From a plasmid: 64,000 nt of DNA. The first letter of the stretch is position 1; each line of letters starts with the position of its first letter. Shown piece after piece: positions 5,036 through 5,102 of this stretch. The translations under genes were made by a program, and so were the position numbers. The notes beneath the pieces were generated by a model, which searched no databases, was not told the origin of the DNA, and was given only the letters and a program-made list of their open reading frames with translations. The stretch is from NCBI RefSeq assembly GCF_054482595.1, contig NZ_JBTHVH010000001.1, one strand, 5' to 3'.

Positions 5036-5052
5036 ATTGCTCTAATAATTCC
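5036..5052 (+). promoter_or_regulatory. C1 operator-like site (14/17)
   Basis: ATTGCTCTAATAATTCC immediately after stop of 4333..5034. Confidence 0.5.
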
Positions 5053-5061
5053 ATATTTTTA

Positions 5062-5089
5062 AAACGTGATGTACACTCATCACGTTTTT
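5062..5089. terminator. perfect 11-bp stem hairpin (AAAACGTGATG/CATCACGTTTT, loop TACACT) with flanking A/T runs; bidirectional terminator candidate
   Basis: Read directly; sits between two inverted operator-like sites. Confidence 0.5.
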
Positions 5090-5102
5090 TATTAGAGCAA
5101 TC
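5086..5102 (-). promoter_or_regulatory. C1 operator-like site (14/17), inverted relative to 5036..5052
   Basis: Plus strand TTTTTTATTAGAGCAAT. Confidence 0.5.

Follow-up and report, generated by a model that had tools for sequence, protein, structure and literature searches.

A putative terminator hairpin between the C1 operators OpmgRa and OpmgRb of a P1/P7-type phage-plasmid

Two inverted sites that resemble operators of the C1 repressor lie immediately past the end of pmgQ in the DNA analysed here (a stretch of 64,000 nucleotides, referred to as the window), and a hairpin lies between them. A sequence-only reading of this locus had proposed that the arrangement could couple C1 binding to termination, or to read-through into a coiled-coil gene downstream. 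What do the operators and the hairpin each do, and does the one act on the other?

The stretch represents a phage-plasmid of the P1/P7 type. Over the 1.4 kb surrounding the element it is 99.4–99.8% identical to P1, P7, SJ46, JL22 and others (P1: 99.4%), and positions 5020–5135 are 100% identical to both P1 and P7, in which the identical locus, with the same flanking genes, is known as OpmgRa/OpmgRb with PpmgR in P1 and as Op(sht[a])/Op(sht[b]) in P7. While the sequence is the same, the P1 and P7 records annotate neither the hairpin nor a terminator at this position and give only one predicted promoter. The best explanation of region 5036–5101 is a junction between two P1/P7 transcription units.

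Gene context and C1 operators

The features of the junction and of the transcription units around it are collected in Table 1. The gene pmgQ is the last of the upstream pmgN-pmgQ transcription unit, and its TAA stop codon (5032–5034) is followed 2 nt later by the operator/hairpin element, which agrees with the sequence-only reading in placing the element at the end of this gene. Two details of that reading need correction: the element does not extend to position 5102, which is 1 nt too far since OpmgRb stops at 5101, and the first gene after the element is pmgR, the coiled-coil gene pmgS being second. The pmgR-pmgS unit is closed by a strong terminator after pmgS. Relatives of PmgS at 20–24% identity exist. 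Further upstream, LPpmgL with O26 and PpmgN with Oppp lie 5' of pmgL-pmgM and pmgN-pmgO-pmgP-ppp-pmgQ, all of which are encoded on the + strand, and the cognate C1 repressor is encoded on the same element as the operators.

Table 1. Features of the pmgQ–pmgR junction and of associated transcription units in the window
Feature	Position	Strand	Basis or remark
Late promoter LPpmgL	1379-1397	+	P1 annotation; sequence confirmed in window
C1 operator O26	1412-1428	-	P1 annotation; sequence confirmed in window
PpmgN, predicted promoter	about 2280-2306	+	P1 annotation; window sequence
C1 operator Oppp	2319-2335	-	P1 annotation; window sequence
pmgQ (P7 hdmD)	4333..5034	+	ORF; annotated PmgQ/HdmD in P1, P7
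OpmgRa (former Op86a; P7 Op(sht[a])), ATTGCTCTAATAATTCC	5036-5052	+	C1 protein_bind in AF234172, AF503408
PpmgR, annotated predicted sigma-70 promoter	5037-5065	+	P1 record; -35 TTGCTC (5037-5042), 17-nt spacer, -10 TAAAAC (5060-5065)
Alternative candidate promoter	5049-5077	+	-35 TTCCAT (5049-5054), 17 nt, -10 TACACT (5072-5077, loop)
T-rich stretch ATATTTTT	5053-5060	+	
11-bp perfect stem AAAACGTGATG / CATCACGTTTT	5061-5071 / 5078-5088	+	6-nt loop TACACT, 5072-5077
T6 run (U-tract)	5085-5090	+	Common to hairpin base, proposed terminator tail and OpmgRb 3' end
OpmgRb (former Op86b; P7 Op(sht[b])), ATTGCTCTAATAAAAAA	5085-5101	-	Annotated in AF234172, AF503408
Spacer, 4 nt, OpmgRb to ribosome binding site	5102-5105	+	Hypervariable
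Shine-Dalgarno AAGGTG	5106-5111	+	
pmgR (P7 shtA), 72 codons	5116-5334	+	ORF, P1 annotation; ATG at 5116
pmgS (P7 shtB), 420 codons, coiled-coil gene	5336-6598	+	ORF; P1, P7 annotation
pmgS-end intrinsic terminator	6618..6652	+	11-bp stem, 6 G-C pairs, then T7; -17.6 kcal/mol
c1 repressor gene, 283 aa	21923-22774	-	ORF; 99.3% identical to P1 C1

The two inverted operator-like sites recognized from the sequence alone are annotated as C1 operators in both P1 (AF234172) and P7 (AF503408). Their outer inverted repeat consists of 13 perfectly repeated nucleotides, ATTGCTCTAATAA (5036–5048) and TTATTAGAGCAAT (5089–5101); the second site is therefore an inverted partner in its first 13 nt, the only part mirrored between the two 17-mers, and not in the remaining 4. 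Each site matches the asymmetric 17-bp C1 operator consensus ATTGCTCTAATAAATTT cited in PMC8546580 at 14 of 17 positions, with three mismatches. Allowing up to three mismatches, a scan of the window with this consensus returned 12 matches against 0.29 expected. We also ran the matrix scan suggested by the sequence-only reading, using a weight matrix built from 12 other annotated P1 operators with OpmgRa and OpmgRb left out; the two sites scored 19.2 and 16.9 bits, respectively, and the window held 16 matches of at least 15.5 bits compared with 0.26 in shuffles. The operator pair at 23333–23349 and 23416–23432, considered as a second example of the arrangement, corresponds to the known Oc1d/Oc1e.

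Variation around the sites was assessed in IMG/VR contigs, which were gathered through an anchor placed in pmgR, outside the operators, as a guard against ascertainment bias; 105 of the 108 contigs aligned without gaps, and the variant counts rest on these. A single variant was found in OpmgRa (5036–5050) and none in OpmgRb (L128, apart from these gapless contigs, has one there), which amounts to one variant in 105 contigs for the operator cores together; across all 108 contigs the cores are near-invariant. The spacer at 5102–5105, used as a local yardstick for unconstrained variation, differs in 13, 15, 2 and 26 of the 105 contigs, position by position, and the 3' end of pmgQ carries several variants per site on average in the same set. 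Cronobacter phage JK004 and a set of Salmonella plasmids also have both 13-nt cores unchanged at the same positions, and their pmgQ, pmgR and pmgS share only 65–75% nucleotide identity with the genes described here. A C1 homologue (76.7% identity) is encoded by JK004, and the half of its genome that was covered contains 12 or more additional matches to the C1 operator consensus.

Searches of plasmids and phages recovered three or four lineages of the element (P1 type, Salmonella type, L061 and JK004). When one genome per species was scanned for the operator pair, two P1-type matches in Escherichia were obtained, along with one in a Paludibacteraceae metagenome-assembled genome that lacks the hairpin and is attributed to chance. 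Judged by these comparisons, the operators are shown to be kept by selection, and OpmgRa and OpmgRb are very probably C1 operators, a confidence that applies to the operator part alone. This half of the finding is already known from the P1 and P7 GenBank records, and the designation Op86a/b, which that of P1 gives as a former name, points to earlier work on the sites.

The two operators are separated by 32 bp (49 bp from centre to centre), and the P1 record labels each of them as monovalent. The bivalent operator Oc1ab (former Op99a/b) likewise contains two inverted asymmetric 17-mers whose A/T-rich 3' ends face each other, but its sites overlap by 6 bp to form a 28-bp unit. OpmgRa and OpmgRb do not overlap, and a bivalent operator of the Oc1ab kind was rejected on this ground. 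C1 molecules bound at the two sites may cooperate. Lxc has been reported to increase the affinity of C1 for its operators (PMC8546580).

The hairpin and its T-run

The 11-bp perfect stem-loop described from the sequence alone is indeed present between the operators. Its core, CGUGAUG/CAUCACG, comprises 7 bp with four G-C pairs, and the four outer pairs are all A-U; the predicted energy is -12.9 kcal/mol for the full stem and -8.5 kcal/mol for the core. The window contains five distinct perfect hairpins with stems of 11 bp or longer, loxP among them, while Markov simulations predict 0.13. When 96 nt are folded as RNA, the operator arms pair as a 13-bp outer helix around the hairpin and the structure reaches -26.9 kcal/mol (z = -6.0). 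No family in Rfam 15 accounts for it, the sole match being a plant miRNA model at 19.6 bits (gathering threshold 211, E = 0.42).

In the P1 type the stem reads AAAACGTGATG/CATCACGTTTT; the Salmonella type has AAAACATGGTG/CACCATGTTTT, and JK004 has GAAGCATGGTG/CGCCATGTTTT. In an alignment of 20 variants, two stem pairs are altered on both sides (G-C to A-U and A-U to G-C), six other pairs are altered on one side only, to G.U, and 97% of the stem cells remain paired. These compensatory changes represent few independent events, because they fall on what is essentially a single deep split between the P1 type and the Salmonella and JK004 types. Within the P1-type population, the variants that keep pairing through G.U are A5061G (three), A5064G (six), C5081T (three) and C5078T, A5082G and C5083T (one each), and the disruptive stem variants are all singletons; the tallies are of contigs and not of independent events. 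The G.U pairs can form only in RNA of the + strand, and the JK004 hairpin is predicted to be far more stable as + strand RNA (-13.5 kcal/mol) than as - strand RNA (-5.8 kcal/mol). As far as the comparison of variants can tell, the hairpin is shown to be a selected RNA structure of the + strand.

The outer helix behaves differently. It displays no covariation, changes simply break it, and pair 6-71 is lost in both the Salmonella lineage and JK004, a pattern that fits protein-binding sites and not a selected RNA stem. This bears on the possibility that the hairpin, alone or together with the outer stem, is an RNA processing or stability element (a 3'-protecting stem-loop or an RNase III-type site) that does not terminate transcription. 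The stability and z-score of the nested structure speak for such a role, and the fact that the inner stem is conserved on the + strand would suit any function at the RNA level. The outer helix, however, breaks at pair 6-71 as an operator constraint would predict, its left arm would be masked by a ribosome halted at 5032–5034, and the invariant T6 run, which is kept against the operator consensus, is specifically a feature of terminators. We consider a processing element unlikely.

All 20 variants have the T6 run intact. In OpmgRb it makes up operator positions 12–17; this site carries A at positions 15–17, whereas position 15 is T in each of the 12 other P1 operators; on the + strand this gives TTTTTT in place of AAATTT, and the deviation is kept in all lineages. 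By this comparison, operator constraint does not explain the T-run, which is kept at the expense of the consensus. The same deviation weighs against a functionless hairpin, whose symmetry would have been inherited by accident or would follow from the overlapping constraints on promoter and operator. It is true that the -10 hexamer TAAAAC on the left and the operator 3' end on the right could account for the four outer A-U pairs, and that patterns resembling terminators often arise by chance (a rule-based scan of 5 kb found 11, against 5.4 expected). Yet the T's on the right contradict the operator consensus, the 7-bp core lies outside both constraints and has undergone the two compensatory changes, and perfect 11-bp hairpins are as rare by expectation as given above, all of which makes a functionless hairpin extremely improbable.

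Most likely, the hairpin would serve as a Rho-independent terminator for transcripts arriving from pmgQ, that is, from the pmgN-pmgQ unit. It is located 26 nt past the co-oriented pmgQ stop codon, amid genes that are all on the + strand, and presents the stem-loop with a T6 run directly after it (if only the core is counted as stem), the position at a co-oriented gene end and the compensatory change expected of intrinsic terminators. Judged by its sequence features, the anatomy is that of a moderate Rho-independent terminator and not of a strong one. The pmgS terminator (6618–6646) is similar in having a stem-loop and T-run just past a co-oriented stop codon, with a 5' A-tract able to pair with the U-tract. 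The hairpin differs from it in being weaker (-8.5 kcal/mol for the core versus -17.6 kcal/mol), in lying within a promoter and in being overlapped by a repressor site. Termination would perhaps be partial because the core has only four G-C pairs and is far weaker than the pmgS terminator.

The rule-based terminator scan did not list the hairpin at 5061–5088, because the full-length stem absorbs four of the T's; this is a limitation of the scan and also a reminder of the modest strength of the terminator. The parts of the P1 record that were consulted contain no terminator feature at this site or after pmgS, and our literature search returned no study that mapped transcript ends in P1.

Promoter geometry and the role of C1

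The -10 hexamer of the annotated PpmgR, TAAAAC, lacks the usual final T, and its second position, the -11 A (A5061), is replaced by G in JK004 (TGAAGC) and in three contigs of the P1 type. In a rough sigma-70 scan, whose scores are approximate, the alternative candidate with its -10 hexamer in the hairpin loop ranked first in all three lineages at the same position, and PpmgR ranked only fifth. The loop hexamer is TACACT here and TATCAT in relatives; its T1, A2 and T6 are unchanged in every variant, among which there are only two independent loop sequences. The -10 assignment of PpmgR in the reference may be misplaced. Transcription is predicted to start in the loop (approximately 5071–5074) from PpmgR or at the 3' foot of the stem (approximately 5083–5086) from the loop -10, and both the hexamer in use and the start position are predictions of this kind. 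Because both candidate starts are inside or just past the hairpin, a pmgR-pmgS transcript would lack the left arm and could not form the terminator.

A comparable module is present at the P1 operator OpmgT (former Op88; 7177–7221 of the window), where ATTGCTCTAATAA is followed after approximately 7 nt by ATTTTTAAAACG. Its promoter P2pmgT has the same TTGCTC-17-TAAAAC arrangement as PpmgR, and the annotated P1pmgT behind OpmgT sits in the position equivalent to that of the loop -10 candidate for pmgR. OpmgT differs from the pmgR locus in being a single operator with no inverted partner and with no + strand terminator within the promoter; the hairpin downstream of it (7226–7248) has a T-run on the - strand only.

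Other types of control were considered for the promoter. P1 late promoters consist of a 9-bp -22 box (AAGTGACTT-like), 4 nt and a -10 hexamer, and comparison with the boxes of eight annotated P1 late promoters gave no credible -22 box match at 5036–5102, so an Lpa-dependent late promoter was rejected; the sequence that comes closest, ACGTGATGT-ACAC-TCATCA, is poor in its -10 and missing in the Salmonella type. The inner palindrome might instead be a DNA site at which a second dimeric regulator, of phage or host origin, acts on the promoter, given that it is perfect and centred on the candidate -10 hexamer and that symmetric changes in its arms could come from co-evolution with a binding protein. 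The arms differ between lineages (CGTGATG versus CATGGTG) and hold no shared motif, however, the T.G and G.T oppositions of JK004 preserve RNA pairing while breaking DNA symmetry, and no Lpa -22 box is found; we regard a second regulator as very improbable. CRP in particular was rejected: its consensus half-site spacing differs from the GTGA-N10-TCAC found here, and no motif is common to the lineages.

The proposal that C1 binding is coupled to termination takes two forms, in which C1 at OpmgRb acts as a roadblock that raises termination or C1 sets the read-through from pmgQ into pmgR-pmgS, as a repressor-tuned terminator. OpmgRb does overlap the U-tract and the expected release site, the spacing of operators and hairpin is constant, at 65 nt, in every lineage, and the degenerate 3' end of OpmgRb is retained throughout. 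Plain promoter repression would nevertheless explain the sites, because the P1 record puts the predicted PpmgR between them. The upstream promoters are controlled by C1 (through Oppp and O26) or are late (LPpmgL) and would be silent while C1 is active; with C1 bound, there would therefore be little transcription to modulate at the hairpin. RNA polymerase arriving from upstream would, moreover, reach C1 at OpmgRa before the hairpin. The coupling proposed by the sequence-only reading is thus unsupported, and we consider it improbable.

The gene pmgR is essential: when it is deleted, heads and tails remain unjoined (PMC9024508). In a knock-down screen that used dCas12a as a roadblock, targeting pmgO, pmgP, ppp and pmgQ gave a plating of about 1 (PMC10695390), which is compatible with pmgR having a promoter of its own; the argument carries little weight, since a guide against pmgR was likewise without effect (PMC10695390).

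Proposed mechanism and significance

Taken as a whole, we consider it moderately probable that the locus comprises a repressed promoter between C1 operators with a terminator hairpin nested in the promoter. In the lysogen, C1 on both operators would keep the sigma-70 promoter for pmgR-pmgS off, with OpmgRa spanning the -35 region and OpmgRb spanning roughly +1 to +29, that is, the early transcribed region or the start itself, depending on the -10 hexamer. Stray transcription from upstream would meet bound C1 and then the terminator. Upon induction, C1 would be inactivated and the promoter would fire from within the hairpin. Transcripts from PpmgN and LPpmgL would end, at least partly, at the U-tract, with the hairpin and T6 acting as + strand RNA, and the pmgR-pmgS mRNA, missing the left arm, would escape the hairpin and end at the 6618–6646 terminator.

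A more elaborate version, to which we give only a small chance, holds that a terminator, the promoter of the next operon and a repressor site share the same 40 bp as a conserved three-in-one module in which C1 tightens termination. The -10 hexamer would double as the terminator loop and the U-tract as a deliberately degenerate 3' end of OpmgRb, and C1 at OpmgRb would both repress initiation and roadblock the release site against stray transcription in the lysogen. Such a module, if true, would be a repressor-assisted terminator.

Since the GenBank records of P1 and P7 already list the two operators and a promoter between them, the value of this locus as a discovery is small and the gain is one of annotation. 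The additions are modest: a hairpin that is selected as + strand RNA and has the anatomy of a terminator, a U-tract kept over the operator consensus, and a -10 assignment that is possibly wrong. These are useful for engineering P1 and P1-type phage-plasmids and for interpreting polarity in P1 knock-down screens. In the biology of these elements, the hairpin probably insulates pmgR, an essential head-completion gene, from the upstream unit.

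Sequence variation and lineages at the OpmgRa/OpmgRb element

The bracketed hairpin and the interval that follows it differ greatly in conservation among the P1-type contigs. Between the C1 operator OpmgRb and the ribosome binding site of pmgR lie four hypervariable nucleotides, 5102-5105 (13, 15, 2, and 26 of 105 contigs differ at the successive positions), whereas the 66 nt preceding them are nearly invariant. Contig L061 (IMGVR_UViG_2773857937_000001) carries both operators and the hairpin of the Salmonella type at its positions 83-147, but differs in the ribosome binding site and in the start of the downstream gene; it is a fourth lineage.

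Similar arrangements and other inverted repeats

A second close pair of operator matches in the window, at 23333-23349 (-) and 23416-23432 (+), was rejected as a further case of a bracketed hairpin because it corresponds to the known Oc1d/Oc1e of the c1-coi/cre region. Outside enterobacteria, the operator-pair pattern was matched only once, at 1789-1849 of a Paludibacteraceae MAG contig (L126), where both the hairpin and the T-run are missing; this candidate was therefore rejected as a chance match rather than a genuine operator pair. Two other perfect hairpins and the inverted repeat of loxP are included in the table.

Features of the window outside the OpmgRa/OpmgRb element
Feature	Position	Strand	Sequence or content	Location
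Hairpin, 9 bp, G+C-rich	7226-7248		ACATGCCGC-AAGGC-GCGGCATGT	Leader downstream of OpmgT promoters
Small ORF	7276-7362	+	28-aa hydrophobic peptide MNTAFKIIMAAIYFWLFSITFGGIVAHG	
Perfect hairpin, 11-12 bp	13274-13298		AACTATCCGGA-TAT-TCCGGATAGTT	
Operator-like site	20218-20234		TTTGCTCTAATAAATTG	Upstream of antirepressor gene
Antirepressor gene, 372 aa	20772-21890		Pfam ANT KilAC and ORF6N domains	Between pacB and c1
Inverted repeat, 13 bp	23476-23509		loxP	
Perfect hairpin, 11-12 bp	42443-42470		AAGAGCATATGC-ATCA-GCATATGCTCTT	

The OpmgT leader and a small ORF

Downstream of OpmgT, a neighbouring C1 operator-promoter module, the leader hairpin has its T-run on the minus strand only and thus resembles a leftward transcription terminator, which is at odds with the surrounding genes, all of them rightward. 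The small ORF, flanked by OpmgT and pmgT, is preceded by a good Shine-Dalgarno sequence (AGGAG, 8 nt upstream). No CDS is annotated anywhere in the pap-pmgT interval of the P1 record, and a Pfam search of the peptide gave no match. The small gene at the equivalent place in Cronobacter phage JK004 (gene_94) encodes an unrelated peptide.

Departures from the P1 gene order

Different from P1, in which pacB and c1 are adjacent, the window contains the antirepressor gene between them. Colinearity with P1 mod749::IS5 is also broken at about 7400-16900. The offset from window to P1 coordinates is 77116 at pmgR versus 72992 at Olpa/lpa (window 16912-17451), and the window therefore holds approximately 4.1 kb of extra DNA between these two loci; the offset shifts a second time before c1.
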